A stretch of DNA of 64,000 bases from an uncultured Clostridia bacterium (GCA_947628835.1 CANRBL010000004.1:214-64213), one strand, 5' to 3'; counted from the first letter of the stretch, positions 51,980-61,178 are shown. The notes: generated from the sequence alone by a model not told the origin. Translations and numbers: made by a program.

Positions 51980-53641
51980 TTACTTTTTATAAATTGCTCC
52001 AGAATCATTTTTGTATAATAATTCCATATTTGAAACTAAATTTTCTACATATTCTTCTGAAAAATTAGCATTATAAAAATATATAATGTAATTTACTTTT
52101 TCTAAATTAATTGAATTAGGAACATAATCATAACCCATTAATTTACTAGCCCAACTTCTTTGATAATAATTTCCTATTATAGAAACAACATCTGTATAAT
52201 CTATTATTTCTCTTGACTTTTTCAATAATTGTTTTTCCTCTTTTGTATATATAATTCCATAACTTTTTTTATTTAATATTATATTAACATTTTCATAATA
52301 TACATTACTTAATGATAATATTAAACTTAGTAATACTATAAGCATTGCGTTTATATATATATTATGTTTAGTTATTAATTTATCTATCCATTTACCAATA
52401 ATTATAAAACATATTCCCCATAATATAAACAAATTTTTTATTAAATAGTATAAAGATATTTTACCAAAATATACAACTATTGCCAAAATTATTATGTATA
52501 GCACTATATCTACAAATACATAATATATATATTGATTTTTTTGTTTTTCCTTTATAAATAAGTATATAGATAATGGAAGAATAATTATAAAATTGGAATA
52601 TATATCTCTATAAATAGGTCCTTCAACTAATATCCCAACAATTAATTCGTTTACTTTCTCTTTTTCATAAAATATATGATACTGTAAACCACATATTAAT
52701 GGAATTATAATTGTAACAATTCCTAATATTATAAATCTTGAATTTACATATTTATTATTTTTTTCTTTATTATTGTACATTCCAAATAATATTTCCGCTC
52801 CATATATGAAAGGAACAAATACATAATAAGAAAAAAATAATGAAAAATTTAAAATAAATAGACATATTGTATTTATTTTAAAATCAAAATCCTTATTACT
52901 GTAATTCTGAAAAAAAATAAAAATTGTATTTATTACAAGTATGCTTATTGTTAAATATGAAAAGCCATAACATATACTATTAAATGCATACCCTAATGTA
53001 TATAATATTGTCAATATCATTGCTATTATTCTGCTTGTCTTGTTATGGCAAAATTTTAATAATATGGTATTCATTGTTAGTGCTATTAATACTAGTATTA
53101 ATATATCAAATATTATAAATATTTGATATAAATCAAAATCATCTATGTTTCCACTAAAAATTTTCATTAGTAAACCAGTATTAATATATGCCATTGGCAT
53201 AAAACCTTTAGCTTCCTCTTTTAGCTCATCTGATTTTGAAAATTGAACGGCTGTATTATAATGTGCAGTTGCATCTATACTAGCATATTTTATATTTAAA
53301 TCTGTACTATAATTTAAAATACAAATACTAATTACAATAATTGTAATCAATATTTTTTGTACTATTTCTTCTTTGTTTAAATAAAATTTTTGATATTTTT
53401 TATCTTTTACAATTTTATATATTAGTATCCCTATAAATATAAAGTTAATTATACTTAAATTGGTAAAGTTTATCTTCACTTTTGTTTCATACATTATATA
53501 ACAAATTATAGTGTTATATCCTAAAATAATTACAATAGCTGTTATAATACATTCTAATATATTTAATTTTTTGTCAGATTTTTTTACTACTATAAATATG
53601 AACATTAATATTAATGATGTCATTATAAATGCTATTTTCAT
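51980..53641 (-). CDS. Large polytopic integral membrane protein, unknown function
   Basis: 553 aa with more than 10 hydrophobic helices and a C-terminal soluble part. GT-C / polymerase-like topology, but I recognise no diagnostic motif. Confidence 0.5.
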   Translation of the reverse strand: MKIAFIMTSLILMFIFIVVKKSDKKLNILECIITAIVIILGYNTIICYIMYETKVKINFTNLSIINFIFIGILIYKIVKDKKYQKFYLNKEEIVQKILITIIVISICILNYSTDLNIKYASIDATAHYNTAVQFSKSDELKEEAKGFMPMAYINTGLLMKIFSGNIDDFDLYQIFIIFDILILVLIALTMNTILLKFCHNKTSRIIAMILTILYTLGYAFNSICYGFSYLTISILVINTIFIFFQNYSNKDFDFKINTICLFILNFSLFFSYYVFVPFIYGAEILFGMYNNKEKNNKYVNSRFIILGIVTIIIPLICGLQYHIFYEKEKVNELIVGILVEGPIYRDIYSNFIIILPLSIYLFIKEKQKNQYIYYVFVDIVLYIIILAIVVYFGKISLYYLIKNLFILWGICFIIIGKWIDKLITKHNIYINAMLIVLLSLILSLSNVYYENVNIILNKKSYGIIYTKEEKQLLKKSREIIDYTDVVSIIGNYYQRSWASKLMGYDYVPNSINLEKVNYIIYFYNANFSEEYVENLVSNMELLYKNDSGAIYKK

Positions 53642-53735
53642 TTTTAATCACATTCCTTCCTAAGGCACAAATACAAAATTAAAATTTGACACAGCAAAAA
53701 TTGTAATTATTTTTCCACTTTTTTCCTCTTGAACT

Positions 53736-55199
53736 TTAATATGTAACCAAATACATTATATCTTTATCAAATATGACTTTTTGATTATTTTCTAAATTGT
53801 TCTCCTCATATTTAAAATACATATCATAAATTTCATCTTCCATTACTATTTGTTCTATATCTTTTTTTAACCATAATTTGAAAAAAGCCGAATTTATTGT
53901 CATTTTTAAATTACTTGATTTTTTACAAATTGGGTTTTTATCTTGATGGTTTATGATAAACATATATGGTTCTTTTGCAATATACGCAAATTTTGTAATT
54001 GTAATTCCAGATGTTTCTTCATAATCTTTTATCTGTATATTAATCTCTTCCATTATTCTTTTATCAATCAACTGTCCTTTTCTGTAATAATAGCAATATG
54101 AAATTATACTTATTGTTTGTACTACAAAATAAATTATTAATACTCCTAATAATAATTTACTAAATTGAATTTTGACATTTATAAGATTTGAACTCCATAA
54201 AAATATGTAAATATACCCTATCATTGCTCCAATTGTAAAGAATATTCTTCCATATAACCTATATGTGCTATATGGTACAGTTAGACATATTATAAGAGAT
54301 GTTATTATAGATATAAATATTATAACTATTATTTTCATTAATATTGTTTTCTTTTTTTCTACTTTGGAATAATATATTATTCCAAGTATAAAAAAAATAA
54401 AAATTATTTGTATATATTTTGGAAATAATCCTATACTTTCAAATATTATACTATATAAATTTAAGAATATTGTTTTGATACTTTGTATTATATTTAATGA
54501 TAATCTACTTGTCATATTTCCTTTTGTATATATTGCTATAAATATTAAATTTAATGTTATTGCACTACATAAAACAATTAATGCTTGAAAACAATTTCTT
54601 CTTCTATCTGCTTTATTGTAATTTTTATTATTTATAACTTGTAATACTAGATAATAACTTATAAATACACCTATATTTCCTTGATAACAAAAAGTAGCTA
54701 TTAACACACATATTACAGCTTTTATTATATAATTTTTATTTCTATTATACAGATTATTTGCTCCTACAATATATAATAATATACTTGTTGCTATTACTGG
54801 AAATTCTATAAATTGAAGATTATCTACATACATAAAATTAAATATTGTTATATATGATATTAATATTATAATTACATCTTCAATTTTATTTTTTGGGCTC
54901 TTTAATTTTTTTATTGCACCATATAAATACATAACTGTCAAACACATAATTATTATTCCTATAATATACAATCCTATTATTGCATAATCTATATCTACTC
55001 CTTGTATTAAATATAGCAATATACCAGAACAAATTCTTCCATCTTGGAAGAATTTGCTTTGTGTATATTGTTTATATCCATTATTTACCATTTCCATTGT
55101 ATCTATTGTATAATGAGGATATAAAAAGTTATGAGTTACAATTAATGAAAAGATTAGTATTAATAATATTATTCTTAACCTTTTTATATTTTTTTTCAT
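53736..55199 (-). CDS. Large polytopic integral membrane protein, possibly GtrII-like glucosyltransferase (GT-C)
   Basis: 487 aa with more than 10 helices. The first loop, HYTIDTMEMVNNGYKQYTQSKFFQDGRICSG, resembles the D...GR loop of Glucos_trans_II-type proteins. This assignment is weak. Confidence 0.45.
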   Translation of the reverse strand: MKKNIKRLRIILLILIFSLIVTHNFLYPHYTIDTMEMVNNGYKQYTQSKFFQDGRICSGILLYLIQGVDIDYAIIGLYIIGIIIMCLTVMYLYGAIKKLKSPKNKIEDVIIILISYITIFNFMYVDNLQFIEFPVIATSILLYIVGANNLYNRNKNYIIKAVICVLIATFCYQGNIGVFISYYLVLQVINNKNYNKADRRRNCFQALIVLCSAITLNLIFIAIYTKGNMTSRLSLNIIQSIKTIFLNLYSIIFESIGLFPKYIQIIFIFFILGIIYYSKVEKKKTILMKIIVIIFISIITSLIICLTVPYSTYRLYGRIFFTIGAMIGYIYIFLWSSNLINVKIQFSKLLLGVLIIYFVVQTISIISYCYYYRKGQLIDKRIMEEINIQIKDYEETSGITITKFAYIAKEPYMFIINHQDKNPICKKSSNLKMTINSAFFKLWLKKDIEQIVMEDEIYDMYFKYEENNLENNQKVIFDKDIMYLVTY

Positions 55200-55296: not shown

Positions 55297-56850
55297 TCAT
55301 CTGTTTGTCCGTCCTGTAGCACTGTCTTTTCCTAAATTAATTACATATTCAAAACTATTTTCACTGGATGTATTATTCGTATTTTGATTAATTATGCAAT
55401 CATAACAGCCTGACTCTGTTTGTGGATAATAATATACTATCTGTCCACTATTATTTGTTCCTCCATTTTTTCTCTCAAAATCTATATTTAGAAATCCTTG
55501 ACAATTGTTAAGATTAATTGAACCACCAGTTAAATTTTTATCAGTAATTTTATGATATTTATTGCCATCTTTTATATAAATCAAATTTTTGTCAATATAT
55601 TCTTCATTTTGATTATTTGTAACTACTGCATAACCATTATACATTTTTCCACCTATTTGCATTCCTTGAACAAAGCTCATAACTGATACATTGTTTAAAA
55701 GTTTATACCAATCTGTTTCACTTAAATTAGGCATTACAAAATCTGCATTATTAAACATTGCATTGTAATTGGCTATTGCTAATTGCAAATTATGTTCTAT
55801 TGCATATCTTATAACTGCTAGTCTATGCTCATTAAAGTTTGAAGATGATAACTCTGGATCTCCTTCAAAAATGTTTACATTTTCATTAAAATCTGCTCTA
55901 TCCGTAATTGGGTTACCTTCAACATCACAAGCTTTATTAAATGTCAACCCCGCTAAATTCAGTTCATTTAAAACCTTGCTCGAAAATTCTTGAGCTTTTT
56001 CATAATATTCTATGGCTTTTGTATTGCTACTAAAATAACTATAATTATTATGCTTATTATCTATGTATTTTTTTCCATTTAACATTGTAAATGCAATACT
56101 TCCATCCCAATAATATTTGACCCCATTTTCTTTTATATATGAACATGATGTTGGGTTATATGGTTGTATATCTGTTCCATCATATATATTTTCTGTTAGC
56201 GCATTTTCCTCTACAATGGGTATATCTCTATATGTAATATTACCTGATGGATCTTTTTGCACGTTATTAGGATCTATAAAATATCCTGATTCATTTCTAT
56301 ATTTACCATTAACAATTCCTTGAATAGTTATATAATTATCTAATGTATATGTTATTGTAAAATCATCATCTAGTTTAGGATATCCCTTATATCTACAACT
56401 ATAATATACATATGACTTTGTTCCATATATTTCTGTACCATTTGCAGCTGAAGTACTAGTATCTGTTTGCTCTATGTTTGCTAAATCATTATTAAAAGGA
56501 GAATATATATAGTATCCATCATATAATGTAAATACTATTGCTGGTACATAATCTTTTACTAAATCAGCATTATAACCACTTAATCCAAAATTACGTGCTA
56601 CTGATGCAAAAAATGTATTTGCAGATGCTTCTATATCTCTTACTTTCGAAGCAGATATATCTGATGTACTACTATTTACAGTATTAAGTTTAAATGCTTT
56701 CACCGCATCATATGTTGCAGTTATTAATTTTGAATCATATGTACTTTGTAAATTCAATGTTTTGGTTTGAAATTTCGTGTATTCTGATAATACAATTGAT
56801 ATTGGTAATATGATTATTATAAATATAATTGCTAAACTTTGTAATTTCAT
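55297..56850 (-). CDS. Large (517 aa) filament-cluster protein with TadE/TadG-like N-terminal helix
   Basis: The N-terminus MKLQSLAIIFIIIILPISIVLSEY resembles the TadE-type hydrophobic segment (..lP..l...e.). Last gene of the cluster. Confidence 0.45.
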   Translation of the reverse strand: MKLQSLAIIFIIIILPISIVLSEYTKFQTKTLNLQSTYDSKLITATYDAVKAFKLNTVNSSTSDISASKVRDIEASANTFFASVARNFGLSGYNADLVKDYVPAIVFTLYDGYYIYSPFNNDLANIEQTDTSTSAANGTEIYGTKSYVYYSCRYKGYPKLDDDFTITYTLDNYITIQGIVNGKYRNESGYFIDPNNVQKDPSGNITYRDIPIVEENALTENIYDGTDIQPYNPTSCSYIKENGVKYYWDGSIAFTMLNGKKYIDNKHNNYSYFSSNTKAIEYYEKAQEFSSKVLNELNLAGLTFNKACDVEGNPITDRADFNENVNIFEGDPELSSSNFNEHRLAVIRYAIEHNLQLAIANYNAMFNNADFVMPNLSETDWYKLLNNVSVMSFVQGMQIGGKMYNGYAVVTNNQNEEYIDKNLIYIKDGNKYHKITDKNLTGGSINLNNCQGFLNIDFERKNGGTNNSGQIVYYYPQTESGCYDCIINQNTNNTSSENSFEYVINLGKDSATGRTNR

Positions 56851-56975
56851 ATGTATCTTTGTCCTTTCCTATCATATATAACTTAATAAGACCTGTAATT
56901 TATTACAAGCCCTATTTATATATAGAATTTTATATTTTTAGACATTATCAATAAAGCAAGTAAACTATTGTTTTC

Positions 56976-57500
56976 TTAAACTCCATTTACAGCAACTATT
57001 CCTGTTGATGATGCTGAAACTTGATATGTATCACTTCCTGCTACTTTATAAAAGAAATTCTTTAATTGTTGAGATATGGTAGAACTAGTATTTTTTACAC
57101 TAACTACTACTCTATCTCCTTCTTTTAAATTCATTATTCCATCATTCTTTTCTAATTCATCCCATATTTGAGTTGTATATTTTGAATAATATACATTTTC
57201 TCCTATTTTTGTACTCTCTGCTACTGTTGCTTTCTTTCCTGGATTTTCATCTAATACTTGTATTTCCATTTCTACATCATATGCATTACCTGTTGATGAA
57301 AGTGTTTGCACAAAAGTTTCATAATTTTCTTCTGTTAACTTTCCTGTTAATCTAATATTATCTACAAATTCATTTGTTGCTGTTTGTATTGATACCTGTG
57401 ATATATCATCTGTTCTGTCAGAAATTGCCATCAATGGAAAAACAAACATTAATACTGCTGCTAAAAATATCGCAATTATAGTTATTGTTGTATCTCCCAT
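56976..57500 (-). CDS. TadE-like pseudopilin-type protein (174 aa)
   Basis: N-terminus MGDTTITIIAIFLAAVLMFVFPLMAISD, followed by a soluble beta-rich domain. Confidence 0.45.
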   Translation of the reverse strand: MGDTTITIIAIFLAAVLMFVFPLMAISDRTDDISQVSIQTATNEFVDNIRLTGKLTEENYETFVQTLSSTGNAYDVEMEIQVLDENPGKKATVAESTKIGENVYYSKYTTQIWDELEKNDGIMNLKEGDRVVVSVKNTSSTISQQLKNFFYKVAGSDTYQVSASSTGIVAVNGV

Positions 57501-57524
57501 ATTTATACCTCCTTTTGATTCATA

Positions 57525-57872
57525 TTACGTTTCTGTATATGTAATTATACGTCGTTTATTTTTATTTGAATCATATAAATTTTCATTTGTTCCTGCTTCT
57601 GATGATATATAATTTTCTGTACCATCATAATCTATCATATAAATATCTTCTGCATAAACTACTCCCATACTTTCTGTAAATTTTTTTCCTTCTAGAATTT
57701 CATACAATCCTTTTTTATTATTAATATATATTCCACTCTTTCCAGAAGCCTGACTATTATTATCATATGAATAAATATCATATTTCTCATATTGTTTTCT
57801 TTCGTCATTGGTATACGGAGTTAATAATGCATCAATTAATTTAGTAGCTCTCTCCTGTGTTGCAATTCCCAT
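57525..57872 (-). CDS. Soluble 115-aa protein of the filament cluster (possibly the displaced C-terminal part of the upstream gene)
   Basis: No SD before ATG 57872. The frame stays open 26 codons upstream and overlaps the end of 57928..58242 in the +1 frame. Confidence 0.4.
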   Translation of the reverse strand: MGIATQERATKLIDALLTPYTNDERKQYEKYDIYSYDNNSQASGKSGIYINNKKGLYEILEGKKFTESMGVVYAEDIYMIDYDGTENYISSEAGTNENLYDSNKNKRRIITYTET

Positions 57873-57927
57873 AGCTGCTAAATTAATAACATTTGTATTT
57901 ACCCATTGCCATTCATATGTAATTTTG

Positions 57928-58242
57928 TTATCGACCTTGCTTCCGTACTCTCATATATTGAGCTACTAATTTTGTTGGTTGTGGATCTTTCCATTTAAAT
58001 ACAATGATATAATTTTCTTTAAATGCTCTATATAGCATTGGCACTATAGTTTCGACCCCAACAGTTCGCTCTTTATCTGCTGACTGCTCTATATATGAAT
58101 AATCATTTTCTCTATCTCTTAACTGCAAAATAGAATCTGTAGTCGCCCTTACTTTACCAAAAAAGTGGATACTTATGGAAAGTGCTAATATAAATATTAA
58201 TACTCCAAAAGCAATATGTAAAGCTTCTGTAACATTTTCCAT
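57928..58242 (-). CDS. MEN-type pilin-like protein P5 (104 aa)
   Basis: MENVTEALHIAFGVLIFILALSISIHFF N-terminus. GGAGGGG RBS. Confidence 0.5.
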   Translation of the reverse strand: MENVTEALHIAFGVLIFILALSISIHFFGKVRATTDSILQLRDRENDYSYIEQSADKERTVGVETIVPMLYRAFKENYIIVFKWKDPQPTKLVAQYMRVRKQGR

Positions 58243-58259
58243 AATATCCCCTCCTTACT

Positions 58260-58727
58260 TTATTGAGCCTTTTTTATAATACATTTATTTACATATCCAG
58301 AATCTGAATCATATTCAAATGATACACTATATGCTTTTCCTGTAAGAGCAGCTCCAACTTGTTTTATATCTGTTGCTTTACCATCTGCAGCAACAGTGCT
58401 ACTCGCTTTATTCCAATTTTTATTAGCACCATCAGCTGTTACTATAGTATTATCTAATGATATTTCTATTTGTTTTGATTTATCTTCTGTATTTGTTAAA
58501 TTGTTTGAAACTATTGCTTCCAATAATGCATTTACATTTGCTCCTTTTACTTTATTTCCTGTATATTGTATAAATTTACTATTAAATGTATCTACAGCTA
58601 ACCCATCTACTGAACTTGTATCTGTTGCCCCTTTCGCATTTTGAAATACTATTATACCTAATGAAATAATTAAAATTGATAATAAAATTGCTCCTGCAAT
58701 TATTAATGCTTTTGATGCATTTTCCAT
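58260..58727 (-). CDS. MEN-type pilin-like protein P4 (candidate major subunit, tandem copy B)
   Basis: MENASKALIIAGAILLSILIISLGIIVF. GGAGGAAAAA RBS. The first 52 aa are identical to P3. Confidence 0.6.
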   Translation of the reverse strand: MENASKALIIAGAILLSILIISLGIIVFQNAKGATDTSSVDGLAVDTFNSKFIQYTGNKVKGANVNALLEAIVSNNLTNTEDKSKQIEISLDNTIVTADGANKNWNKASSTVAADGKATDIKQVGAALTGKAYSVSFEYDSDSGYVNKCIIKKAQ

Positions 58728-58752
58728 AAATTTTTCCTCCTCTCATTCATTA

Positions 58753-59208
58753 CTAATTTGCATTGCCAATTGTACATGTATCTATATAACCAGAATCTGA
58801 ATCAAATGTAAAGGATACACTATAAGCCTTACCAGTTTGCGCACTACCACACTCCTTAATATTTTTTACTCTCTTTTTATCTGGCTTTGAAAAAGAGCCA
58901 CTACTACCACTTGGATTAGTCCAATCACTAGCACTAATTGTTACTTGAATCATTTTAGATTCATCTTCTGTATTTGTTAAATTATTCGCAACTATTGATT
59001 GTAATAATGCATTTACATTTGCTCCTTTTACTTTATTCCCTGTATATTGCGTAAATTTACTATTAAATGTATCTACAGCTAATCCATCTACTGAACTTGT
59101 ATCTGTTGCCCCTTTCGCATTTTGAAATACTATTATACCTAATGAGATAATTAAAATTGATAATAAAATTGCTCCTGCAATTATTAATGCTTTTGATGCA
59201 TTCTCCAT
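58753..59208 (-). CDS. MEN-type pilin-like protein P3 (candidate major subunit, tandem copy A)
   Basis: MENASKALIIAGAILLSILIISLGIIVF. GGAGGAAATAA RBS. Confidence 0.6.
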   Translation of the reverse strand: MENASKALIIAGAILLSILIISLGIIVFQNAKGATDTSSVDGLAVDTFNSKFTQYTGNKVKGANVNALLQSIVANNLTNTEDESKMIQVTISASDWTNPSGSSGSFSKPDKKRVKNIKECGSAQTGKAYSVSFTFDSDSGYIDTCTIGNAN

Positions 59209-59279
59209 AATTATTTCCTCCTTTTTTACTTTAGTTCTTTATAAAAATATTAATAACGTTTTTTATACTGATAATACTT

Positions 59280-59711
59280 TTACTTAGTTATTTGTTCAAA
59301 ATACATGTACTTTACTTTGTTTGTTTTATCATGATATTCCATTTGCGTACATTTGAATTTTATTGAACCATAATATTGCACAAAATCTGATATTCCTCCA
59401 TTGTATAGACTTTCCATATCATAAGTATTATCATCGTCCATCATATGTACATTTATTTTAATTGAATTTTTATCATTTTCAATATATTTATTGTTATTAT
59501 CTAATTGTATTTCATTTTTTTTATTATTATCAATAGCTTTATTTATAATTGTTGCAACGTCTACTCCTGAAACTTCTTTTTGATAATAATATTCATATTC
59601 TAAATTTTCTTTTTTTGCTGTATTATATTTAATTTTATAATTATTATACACGAGCCACATTGATATGACAATAAATATTATAAAAATAAAAAATATTAAT
59701 AATTTTTTCAT
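59280..59711 (-). CDS. Pilin-core paralogue with a different (MKKLLIFF...) N-terminal anchor
   Basis: Shares the core helix (GVDVATIINKAIDNNKKN versus GANVNALLQSIVANNLTN) and the C-terminal strand pair (YHDKTNKVKYMYFEQ versus YDENTGRITEMYFEF in P1). Confidence 0.45.
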   Translation of the reverse strand: MKKLLIFFIFIIFIVISMWLVYNNYKIKYNTAKKENLEYEYYYQKEVSGVDVATIINKAIDNNKKNEIQLDNNNKYIENDKNSIKINVHMMDDDNTYDMESLYNGGISDFVQYYGSIKFKCTQMEYHDKTNKVKYMYFEQITK

Positions 59712-59786
59712 TCTATCCTCTTATATTTTATCATATATTTGCTTATTTTTCAAGTTACGACAATATATTTATATTAAATTTTTGTT

Positions 59787-60284
59787 TCACTTTTTAGTAC
59801 AAGTAACTAAATATACTTGTTTGGTTATTTCACTAATTTTTACTTGACACGAGTAATTATCTAATTTTTTATTATCATTAGGTTTGGAATCTAGTTCATT
59901 TAGTTCATTCTGTATTAATGATAGGTTATTAACATCTTTTTCTATGTATTGACTTGAACCTGATTTTTTCAATATTACAGCAATATATGTCGTTTCTTGG
60001 TTACCTCGAAGGTTTGAAACAGCCACATTTCCAAAATCATATGTATCATTACTTTCTTTTGCACGATTTGCTAATGTTACCACATCATATATTGTTAAAT
60101 CCTCTCTACCGTCATAAGCAGTAAATTGACTATTAAATTCTTCTAATTGTTGTTTTGCTTGTTCATCATATATTCTAGCAGTATTAGAACCAAATGTGAA
60201 TATTAGGTAAACAAACAAAGATAAAACCATTATACCAATTAATACACCTGCTGCCATAATTAAAGCTTTTGAAGCATTCTCCAT
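59787..60284 (-). CDS. MEN-type pilin-like protein P2 (165 aa)
   Basis: MENASKALIMAAGVLIGIMVLSLFVYLIF, then EEFNSQFTAYDG. RBS GGAAAGGAAAC. Confidence 0.55.
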   Translation of the reverse strand: MENASKALIMAAGVLIGIMVLSLFVYLIFTFGSNTARIYDEQAKQQLEEFNSQFTAYDGREDLTIYDVVTLANRAKESNDTYDFGNVAVSNLRGNQETTYIAVILKKSGSSQYIEKDVNNLSLIQNELNELDSKPNDNKKLDNYSCQVKISEITKQVYLVTCTKK

Positions 60285-60322
60285 ATTTGTTTCCTTTCCA
60301 TTGTATTTACATATTTTATAAT

Positions 60323-61114
60323 TTACTGAATTTTTCCTGTAAATTCAAAATACATTTCTGTAATTCTTCCTGTATTTTCATCATAACTTACTACTTGTCC
60401 ATTAAATAATCCTTTTTTCAATTGCATAAATTCATAATATGTTTTTACGTCATCATATATAGAATTATTATTGTTGTACCCATTACTATTAACAATTAAA
60501 TTATTATAGTCATTACCAACATTTGAAGCTAGCTTAGGACAAATTTGTTTAAATTTTTCTAGTGCAAATTGTTTTTTTTCTTTATCTTCATTAGGATTAT
60601 TATTATATTGAAATATTGATGTGATATTTGATGCTAATTGCTGTATAGAATTTTTTGAATACCAGCTATTTAAATTTTCAATTTTTCCCATTATTTTATC
60701 GTCAACAACATTTTTCGTATCACTTTGTTCATATTCGCTATCTAGAATCAATCTATTTATCTCTGGATCAAAAGCAAATTCATCTTGTTTATTATTAAAG
60801 TTAATCTTTATTGTTAATGGTGTATATGCTATATATTTTCCTTCATATCCAATATCTGAATCAGCAGATGATTTTCTTTTATTATAATCTACCACCTTAT
60901 TTACTAAACTTAATAAATCGTTCCCTCTTAAATTTTCTGTAGCATAACTACCATATTCTTCATTAAATTTTACAACTTGCTCTTGTTGTGTTGAACTTGT
61001 ATTTTCGTTATAATATTTTGATATTCTATTAAAGGCAATTACTAAAAGTGAAACTACTACTATTGCAAATAATACACCTGCTGCCATTAATAAAGCTTTT
61101 GTTGCATTTTCCAT
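60323..61114 (-). CDS. MEN-type pilin-like protein P1 (263 aa)
   Basis: MENATKALLMAAGVLFAIVVVSLLVIAF, then VKFNEEYGSY and GNDLLSLVNKVVDYN. Confidence 0.55.
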   Translation of the reverse strand: MENATKALLMAAGVLFAIVVVSLLVIAFNRISKYYNENTSSTQQEQVVKFNEEYGSYATENLRGNDLLSLVNKVVDYNKRKSSADSDIGYEGKYIAYTPLTIKINFNNKQDEFAFDPEINRLILDSEYEQSDTKNVVDDKIMGKIENLNSWYSKNSIQQLASNITSIFQYNNNPNEDKEKKQFALEKFKQICPKLASNVGNDYNNLIVNSNGYNNNNSIYDDVKTYYEFMQLKKGLFNGQVVSYDENTGRITEMYFEFTGKIQ

Positions 61115-61178
61115 AATTTAATACTATACTAGCATACATTTGCTAGTATTACTCCTTTCGTAGTGTGTATATACATTT

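Follow-up and report, generated by a model that had tools for sequence, protein, structure and literature searches.

Mosaic history of a tandem pair of pilin-like genes in a Tad-like locus of an uncultured Clostridia bacterium

Introduction

Two neighboring genes in a 64,000-nucleotide stretch of DNA from an uncultured Clostridia bacterium (hereafter the window) are nearly identical over their first half, barely comparable in the middle and alike again at the end. The locus raises the question of what history produces such a pair, and of whether it tells us something about the filament that the surrounding genes appear to encode. An earlier note on this DNA read the pattern as the product of gene conversion or cassette exchange, with a central cassette swapped between conserved ends in a surface-exposed loop of major pilins, and suggested antigenic or functional variation.

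A Tad-like pilus cluster conserved in the uncultured gut order TANB77 provides the relevant background (Kim et al., 2024, Nat Commun; PMC11680825). TANB77 pilins have been linked to immune stimulation and to checkpoint-therapy response, and the pilus is the sole molecular feature so far tied to the order's association with that response (PMC11680825). The cluster encodes CpaB-, TadZ-, CpaE-, TadA- and TadB/C-like proteins followed by seven pilin-like proteins, 932-938, of 165, 170, 143, 146, 237, 178 and 621 aa; protein 935, of 146 aa, has a single transmembrane helix (TMH), and a promoter of its own was predicted for its gene (PMC11680825). Structural homologies were reported for the machinery proteins of the cluster, and the paper makes no mention of duplication, paralogues or a major pilin (PMC11680825).

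Results

The two genes are adjacent, intact tandem ORFs on the minus strand, as are all features described below, so that upstream here means toward higher coordinates. The upstream copy, P3 (58753..59208), is a putative major pilin of 151 aa, recognized from the ORF list, homology search and an AF2 model. The downstream copy, P4 (58260..58727), has 155 aa and a single Cys, and was recognized from the ORF list, BLASTP to P3 and an AF2 model of its head. These coordinates and reading frames agree with those given before. Each gene has its own start codon and GGAGG ribosome-binding site (RBS): that of P4 lies in the 25-nt spacer between the genes (58728..58752), and that of P3 in the 71 nt on its 5' side (59209..59279), a region that by its sequence could also hold a promoter. 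A promoter scan of 57400..61400 returned 48 promoter-like sites against 33.5 expected, which is uninformative in such AT-rich (26% GC) DNA. Because a scan of the same interval found no terminator-like site, P3 and P4 are likely co-transcribed. The 64-kb window holds no further full, partial, truncated or silent copy of either gene by blastn and tblastn; tblastn of P3 and P4 against the whole window otherwise matched only the N-termini of operon paralogues.

Overall, P3 and P4 share 70% amino acid identity (BLASTP, E = 1e-61), and the pattern of their similarity is far beyond chance. As the earlier note had it, residues 1-52 are identical and residues 1-85 differ at five positions (T53I, Q70E, S71A, A74S and E83K). 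Its description of the DNA differences as few and mostly silent is apt for codons 1-52, where all three nucleotide differences are synonymous, but becomes only narrowly true farther on: over codons 1-83, 13 of 249 nt differ (6 synonymous and 5 non-synonymous codons), and over codons 1-85 the Nei-Gojobori method counts 8.5 synonymous against 5.5 non-synonymous changes. Counted from the ATG, the similar tract spans positions -14 to +256, with a nucleotide identity of 94.5% (58953..59222 in P3 and 58473..58741 in P4), as delimited by this identity together with dS and site patterns. Its similarity decays gradually, with 29, 30, 29, 30, 29, 27, 28, 26 and 21 matches per 30 nt from 5' to 3'. In P3 it spans the RBS, the MENASKA N-terminus, a 21-residue hydrophobic segment and the rest of helix 1, strand 1 and helix 2 of the predicted fold.

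Beyond this tract, some 40 residues in the middle of the two proteins barely align and differ in length by 4 residues. This hypervariable block comprises codons 86-122 in P3 (58843..58953), with a family-wide identity of 27% and a dip in pLDDT to 72, and codons 86-126 in P4 (58350..58472), with a pLDDT of 67-76. That the two blocks are unrelated, as had been stated, is not demonstrable, since both keep an SK.I.(V/I) lead-in and a Trp (W96 in P3, within NWN in P4); this Trp does not vary among 17 relatives, and its conservation across 72 is at least 90%. To judge from these common elements, the central blocks are the hypervariable, indel-rich part of one homologous domain. The motif TGKAYSVSFx(F/Y)DSDSGY is then found in both proteins, with 9 of 51 nt differing. 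It belongs to a conserved C-terminal segment that is predicted to form a beta-hairpin, delimited in P3 (codons 123-151, 58756..58842) by AF2 strands, family identity and dS, and in P4 (codons 127-155, 58263..58349) by alignment, dS and AF2.

A tandem repeat of this kind calls for caution about the assembly. Exact-protein look-up yielded nine contigs of the window's species, all of one strain and with the same two alleles. Two of them (L005 and L006) match the window at 100% identity, extend across P3 and the spacer and end within the repeated 5' part of P4, and a third (L093) starts inside P4 and continues downstream at 100% identity, which confirms the tandem arrangement. Three others (L001, L090 and L092), however, join the region upstream of P3 directly to a P4-type gene as a single hybrid copy, as might be seen if the tandem were an assembly artefact, either a concatenation of strain alleles or a misrendering of what is truly one hybrid gene. 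The hybrid contigs have a coverage of 2-3x and 0-3 differences from the window outside the repeat, and they switch from one copy to the other at nt 63-126 (L001), 6-63 (L090) and 126-158 (L092). Because three different switch points occur in the same strain at such coverage, as repeat collapse produces, the hybrids probably reflect repeat collapse or bubble popping by assemblers; real, recurrent unequal crossover is not the reading we favor. Given also the identical P3-spacer-P4 junction in three assemblies, the continuation from P4 in L093 and comparable tandems in at least eight other species, we consider an artefactual tandem extremely improbable. L001 was separately considered as a different strain (99.3-99.75% identity) with a recombinant gene; this was rejected, the mismatches stemming from paralogous alignment and the flanks being essentially identical.

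The surroundings of the pair bear out the earlier description in so far as these are pilin-like subunit genes, and they place the genes in a Tad-like type IV filament locus. P3 and P4 are encoded beside a type IV filament machine, with platform proteins and the end of an ATPase gene in the same operon. The interval 61179..64000 encodes two platform proteins of 259 and 434 aa (TadB/TadC-like, split) and the C-terminal end of a TadA/CpaF-like ATPase, assigned from the ORFs and from comparison with a syntenic locus, L087, whose platform protein is 74% identical to the 434-aa protein. The ATPase gene is cut by the window end. Locus L087, with the same gene order and similar sizes, shows the upstream machinery that lies outside the window. 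The HMM matches there are weak but specific: SAF at 21.9 bits (cut-off 21), CpaB at 5e-6, a ParA/MinD-like match and, for the ATPase encoded 5' of the platform gene, T2SSE at 25.5 bits (cut-off 24.9) and a TadA-family model at 2.9e-9.

Between the platform genes and P3 lie three pilin-like genes (59280..61114; ORF list and tblastn), which encode proteins of 263 aa and 165 aa (MENxxKAL N-terminus) and of 143 aa (signal-anchor) and correspond to 932-934 of the TANB77 cluster. Downstream of P4, pilin-like genes encode proteins of 104 aa (MENVTEAL), 115 aa, 174 aa and 517 aa (55297..58242; ORF list), with homologues in 76-87 related loci; the 517-aa protein is a homologue of the minor or tip pilin 938. 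The pair occupies the place of the fourth small gene after the platform gene, with one N-terminal TMH, as does 935 in the conserved cluster, which adjoins spoIVB and murC. Because the window operon and L087 match the TANB77 cluster in order and sizes, P3 and P4 correspond to TANB77 protein 935, the match being one of gene order, position and size.

Whether the products are pilins is a question for their N-termini and predicted folds. Both proteins begin with MENASKA (7 residues, with K at -2 and A at -1), and a hydrophobic stretch of exactly 21 residues, LIIAGAILLSILIISLGIIVF, comes next. Position -1 is not Gly and position +5 is not Glu, and the ORF is not extendable upstream. MENASKA/L fits an archaeal-type K-A/L-I site and would then be a short class III leader, cut between A7 and L8; for that reason a "leaderless pilin" reading was dropped as unproven. 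P3 and P4 could equally be unprocessed. Five proteins of the operon start with M-E-N-x-[ST]-x-A-L, followed by about 20 hydrophobic residues. Among the window's 10 polytopic ORFs we found no candidate for a prepilin peptidase (peptidase A24, TadV or FppA), and such a peptidase is likewise absent from the gene list of the published cluster (PMC11680825).

The AF2 model of P3 (72-sequence alignment; pLDDT 87.4) has a helix at residues 2-53 with a kink at 36, a strand, a helix at 62-78, a strand at 88-91, an irregular region of lower confidence and a beta-hairpin (128-135 and 142-149). P4, modeled without its hydrophobic segment (pLDDT 83.9), shows these elements in an unchanged order, and its variable block is likewise predicted with low confidence. 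Foldseek searches of the PDB with the full P3 model and the P4 head gave no match with E < 0.3 and no pilin, and a profile search against PDB sequences gave nothing. Against Pfam and NCBIfam, P3, P4 and their pilin-like neighbors returned nothing above noise (for P3 and P4, no match at E <= 0.1). The Flp_Fap profile (PF04964) did not match and the G/XXXXEY motif is absent, which, together with lengths of 151 and 155 aa, places P3 and P4 outside the Flp/Fap family. Because no sequence or structure search links P3 and P4 to a known pilin, the putative label "pilin" is one of genomic context and topology only, as was concluded for the TANB77 proteins (PMC11680825).

The lack of detectable pilin homology by HMM or Foldseek, the missing Flp motif and a size about three times that of a Flp pilin could also be explained if P3 and P4 were not subunits, and were instead membrane-anchored accessory or secreted proteins of the Tad-like machine, for instance pseudopilin-like proteins or a substrate. 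We think this quite unlikely: the class-III-like N-terminus is common to the five operon proteins mentioned above, the predicted N-terminal helix of about 50 residues is a hallmark of pilins, and among the small genes of the operon this family is conserved best and duplicated most. P3 and P4 are probably the major pilin subunit of a Tad-like filament.

The wider family puts the conserved-ends profile of the pair into perspective. P3 has 7214 homologues at E <= 1e-3 in the protein collection, all unnamed and without a Pfam domain, and a scan of species-representative genomes gave more than 545 relatives. For comparison, 80 loci were retained, all from gut MAGs labelled uncultured Clostridia, Clostridium or Clostridiales, with rabbit, goat, sheep, mouse, chicken and human among the hosts. 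One family record is a closed 1.57-Mb chromosome, and an HRGM genome is found among the relatives. Over 72 sequences, mean pairwise identity is 92.8% for residues 1-28, 69.4% for residues 29-85, 27.4% for residues 86-122 (where length ranges from 20 to 41 residues) and 56.4% for residues 123-151. By this profile, a variable center between conserved ends is the normal condition of the whole family, as in many filament subunits, and what is special to P3 and P4 is the history of the two copies. The closest match to the central block of P3 outside the species is in the sister-lineage protein P0002, at 37.5% identity; for that of P4, a local BLAST against 332 family sequences gave no relative beyond its own strain (best E = 0.15).

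P0002, the product of a single-copy gene of a sister lineage (loci L002-L004), is the closest relative of the pair in any database and the only near one, and the flanks of these loci are 84-89% identical to the window. Calculated by gene segment, the synonymous divergence between P3 and P4 is uneven, as the note's proposal of recombination would lead one to expect: dS (Nei-Gojobori) rises from 0.17 for codons 1-85 to 0.99 for the 26 C-terminal codons. Between either copy and the sister-lineage gene it is 0.30-0.37 and 0.81-0.90, respectively. In nt 1-255, 22 informative sites group P3 with P4, and the two other groupings have 7 and 4. In the remainder of the gene, from nt 256, P3 groups with the L003 gene at 45 sites and with P4 at 22, and 19 support the third grouping; this incongruence between the 5' and 3' parts is significant (Fisher p = 1.3e-4) in a test that includes the variable block, whose alignment is uncertain. 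P3 and P0002 also share a pair of Cys residues (C120 and C145 in P3) that P4 does not have. Because of these dS values and site patterns, together with the shared Cys pair, the 3' half of P4 appears to be older than the split from the sister lineage, and the 5' halves of P3 and P4 appear to have been homogenized later. Even orthologues have about 2.5-fold less synonymous divergence at the 5' end than at the 3' end; constraint, and not conversion, thus accounts for part of the 5' similarity.

These results retain one part of the original proposal and revise another. The genes do have a mosaic history in which conversion is involved, but the detectable event is the homogenization of about 270 nt at the 5' end and not the swapping of a central cassette. 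Similarly, the C-terminal motif does recur in both proteins, yet its dS of 0.99 marks no second recombination boundary. Because the 3' part of P4, motif included, seems old and this dS is about that to the sister lineage, the C-terminal likeness reflects purifying selection on ancient sequence.

Pairs with the same character recur in other species. Among 80 species genomes, tandem 935-type pairs are present in L009, L016, L021, L028, L033, L034 and L040 and, more weakly, in L063; within these pairs, residues 1-85 are 92-98% identical (94-97% at the nucleotide level) and the rest 42-71%. Two genomes whose flanks are about 86-87% identical, L009 and L016, are the most instructive. Over the 5' 255 nt, their copies are 96.1% and 96.9% identical within each genome versus 90.6-91.0% between genomes. 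Over the 3' part, L009B and L016A are 88.9% identical and L009A and L016B 83%, versus 70.8% and 78% within genomes. Informative sites of this quartet group by genome at the 5' end (14, against 0 otherwise), and at the 3' end they group in the crossed arrangement (26, against 0 by genome and 1 by position). By these sites, the two 3' types predate the species split and stand in opposite order in the two genomes, while the 5' parts evolve in concert. Several other pairs have their best 3' match in another genome and their best 5' match in the in-genome paralogue; in L034 and L040 the in-genome paralogue is closest in both halves. Copy number varies among near lineages as well: L094-L097 have one copy, and L028 and L098, which share 91-93% flank identity with L094, have two. 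The single copy was assembled at 25x coverage in L094, and an identical gene is present in four samples (L094-L097).

The L034 and L040 pairs are of the kind expected if the duplication were recent and the 3' half had since diverged under very fast positive selection with no gene conversion, the 5' identity being a matter of youth and constraint. The slower 5' end seen even between orthologues fits this reading, as does the P4 central block without a relative in the sampled set, which is expected for rapid evolution in place. We nevertheless consider it unlikely. A dS of 0.99 in the C-terminal motif is saturating and contrasts with 0.17 at the 5' end, the 3' part of P3 shares twice as many derived sites with the sister-lineage gene (45) as with P4 (22), and the 3' types of L009 and L016 are trans-specific by 26 sites to 0. 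Three-prime halves that are closer to another species' gene and have a high dS are what speaks against a recent origin, and this is largely what was found.

The same comparisons bear on whether the pair belongs to a program of antigenic variation of the Neisseria pilE/pilS type, or to a cassette exchange that uses both conserved ends as arms. A variable block flanked by conserved segments on both sides, a swapped order of 3' types between L009 and L016 and a copy number that changes between such similar flanks would all suit this explanation. In the window, however, both copies are full-length with a start codon and RBS and no truncated or silent copy accompanies them in 64 kb, and all contigs of the one strain carry the same two alleles. 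The 3' motif has not lately been a recombination arm, because its synonymous divergence is high. We therefore judge a programmed system to be very improbable here; the swapped 3' order of L009 and L016 keeps alive some cassette shuffling for the family as a whole. For P3 and P4 themselves, antigenic or functional variation of a surface-exposed region is a reasonable conjecture.

Discussion

We assign a probability of about 0.7 to the reading that P3 and P4 are tandem paralogous major subunits of the TANB77 Tad-like filament, with 5' parts homogenized by conversion and old 3' halves. In each protein, a constant module would lead into hypervariable loops and then into a conserved beta-hairpin at the C-terminus, which closes a small alpha/beta head. 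The constant module would comprise the short, polar MENASKA sequence, the 21-residue hydrophobic segment running into a helix of about 50 residues, then a single strand and another helix. The C-terminal motif would be under purifying selection because the hairpin closes the head. The 3' halves would have diverged before the lineage parted from its nearest sampled relative, and the 5' stretch of about 270 nt would since have been homogenized repeatedly between the copies by intrachromosomal gene conversion. This stretch encodes the portion of the protein that is expected to build the filament core and to engage the assembly platform. Conversion tracts may end at the point where the copies have become too divergent, or where selection maintains distinct heads. 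In this way the cell would keep two subunits that use the same machinery and filament core packing and present different surfaces. The variable block is probably surface-exposed, the subunits may co-assemble or be used alternatively, and host immunity, phage or receptor diversity are candidate sources of selection.

A bolder reading would take the 935 pilins as a new class of type IV-like subunit, with an unrecognized head fold and a leader that is only 7 residues long or absent. Their constant region would be kept uniform by conversion, and their variable types would form a trans-species balanced polymorphism, reshuffled in order and copy number by unequal recombination. We hold this to be rather doubtful. 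If true, gut commensals would gain heritable, and perhaps switchable, pilus surface types, and this would matter in view of the reported links of TANB77 pilins with immune stimulation and with the response to checkpoint therapy.

On the favored reading of conventional paralogous subunits, the pair still has practical consequences. The subunits of the TANB77 pilus are otherwise unstudied, and the likely major subunit often comes in two isoforms with a shared core and long-lived, different surface regions. Such isoforms, together with variable copy number, bear on any read-based quantification of "pilin abundance." They also bear on the epitopes that the host sees and on the proteins chosen for structural or immunological work.

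Among described systems, the TANB77 cluster is the closest to the window, with a common operon architecture, similar gene sizes and a low-GC uncultured gut Clostridia host type. It differs in several respects: the window has two tandem copies of the 935 gene, with a mosaic history, its platform gene and its 936 homologue are each split (434 and 259 aa, and 104 and 115 aa, respectively), and two extra membrane-protein genes follow the operon. Lineage-specific GtrII-like and 12-TM proteins are candidates for glycosylating the variable block, which is rich in Ser and Thr.

Tandem flp genes are familiar from Tad loci, such as flp-1/flp-2 of Aggregatibacter and flp1-3 of Haemophilus ducreyi, and these too are adjacent pilin paralogues in one Tad operon with a common N-terminal hydrophobic part. 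Flp pilins, however, have about 50-60 residues when mature, no globular head and a G/XXXXEY processing motif, whereas P3 and P4 have a predicted alpha/beta head of about 100 residues, no Flp Pfam match and no such motif. Tandem paralogues are also known among archaellins (flaB1/flaB2 of Methanococcus), the archaeal pilins PilA1-6 of Haloferax and bacterial flagellins. Their N-terminal assembly segments are nearly identical, their surface middle is hypervariable and their C-terminal part is better conserved, a pattern like that of P3 and P4. In the PDB searches P3 and P4 matched none of them by sequence or fold, and the machinery here is bacterial, of the Tad type; the Tad system itself reportedly derives from archaeal pili (Denise et al., 2019).

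In Neisseria, silent partial pilS cassettes recombine with pilE, and in Moraxella a site-specific invertase switches between Q and I pilins, so that the expressed gene changes within a clone. Like the present pair, these systems join alternative C-terminal regions to an unchanging pilin N-terminus and involve recombination of one pilin copy with another. The 64 kb, searched for silent cassettes, contains none, and neither an invertase nor an inverted repeat was noticed. The window holds instead two complete, expressed-looking genes, and conversion acts on their constant part. Set beside these systems, the pair is a fresh example of a familiar mode of pilin evolution, partial concerted evolution, clean but conventional and not a new mechanism.

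Possible recombination among tandem pilin genes

Single hybrid genes, in which the 5' end of P3 is joined to P4, its tandem paralogue in the probable major pilin pair, were found on three low-coverage contigs of the window's own strain (L001:1696-2163, L090:2641-3027 and L092:772-1221), each with a different switch interval. These hybrids probably reflect collapse of the repeat during assembly. Recurrent unequal crossover with deletion of one copy would look the same.

The tandem pilin pairs of two other species (L009:10001-10916 and L016:10001-10973) have two trans-specific 3' types that stand in opposite order. Simple unequal crossover within the shared 5' part cannot yield this reversal, which implies either exchange of 3' parts or cycles of gain and loss. 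Four consecutive genes resembling the published pilin-like gene '935' (163, 173, 163 and 132 aa) occupy L078:10001-12210 in MAG SIG349. The adjacent N-terminal regions of the first three are only 54-59% identical, which makes this an expanded array without homogenization.

Components of the pilus operon

Five ORFs on the minus strand (57928..61114; 263, 165, 151, 155 and 104 aa) encode proteins with a common N-terminal pattern, beginning M-E-N-x-[ST]-x-A-L and continuing with about 20 hydrophobic residues. All five have a GGAGG site 7-8 nt 5' of the ATG, and no upstream extension of any of these ORFs is possible. Either the proteins have a class III leader that is very short (MENxxKA, cleaved before L), or they are unprocessed; no peptidase A24-like ORF was found in the 64-kb window.

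We also compared the gene following the probable major pilin, the position of the published pilin-like gene '936', with related loci, most of which encode a protein of 198-237 aa there. The window has two minus-strand ORFs of 104 and 115 aa (57525..58242), as does L003 of the sister lineage, and homologues of the 115-aa ORF were found nowhere beyond these two lineages.

Between spoIVB and the pilus operon lie two further minus-strand genes (51980..55199), one encoding a GtrII-like glucosyltransferase of 487 aa (PF14264, 6e-26) and the other a 553-aa protein with 12 TM segments and no family match. Neither has a homologue in any of the roughly 80 related loci; spoIVB was detected downstream of the pilus genes in 58 of these. 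P3 has a Ser-rich variable block (SGSSGSFS), and the two proteins may form a pilin glycosylation module specific to this lineage.

Comparison with known systems

The platform protein of the window is split between overlapping minus-strand ORFs of 434 and 259 aa (61179..63252, overlapping at 61948..61958), whereas the TANB77 representative in the published cluster has one fused TadC-TadB protein of 693 aa (PMC11680825). The related locus L087 is likewise split (430 and 251 aa).

Most of the family have at most one cysteine, and P4 (58260..58727) has a single one. P3 (58753..59208) and its single-copy orthologue in the sister lineage, P0002, have two each (C120 and C145 in P3), lying either side of the C-terminal hairpin, an arrangement that recalls the loop closed by a disulphide bond in type IVa pilins.
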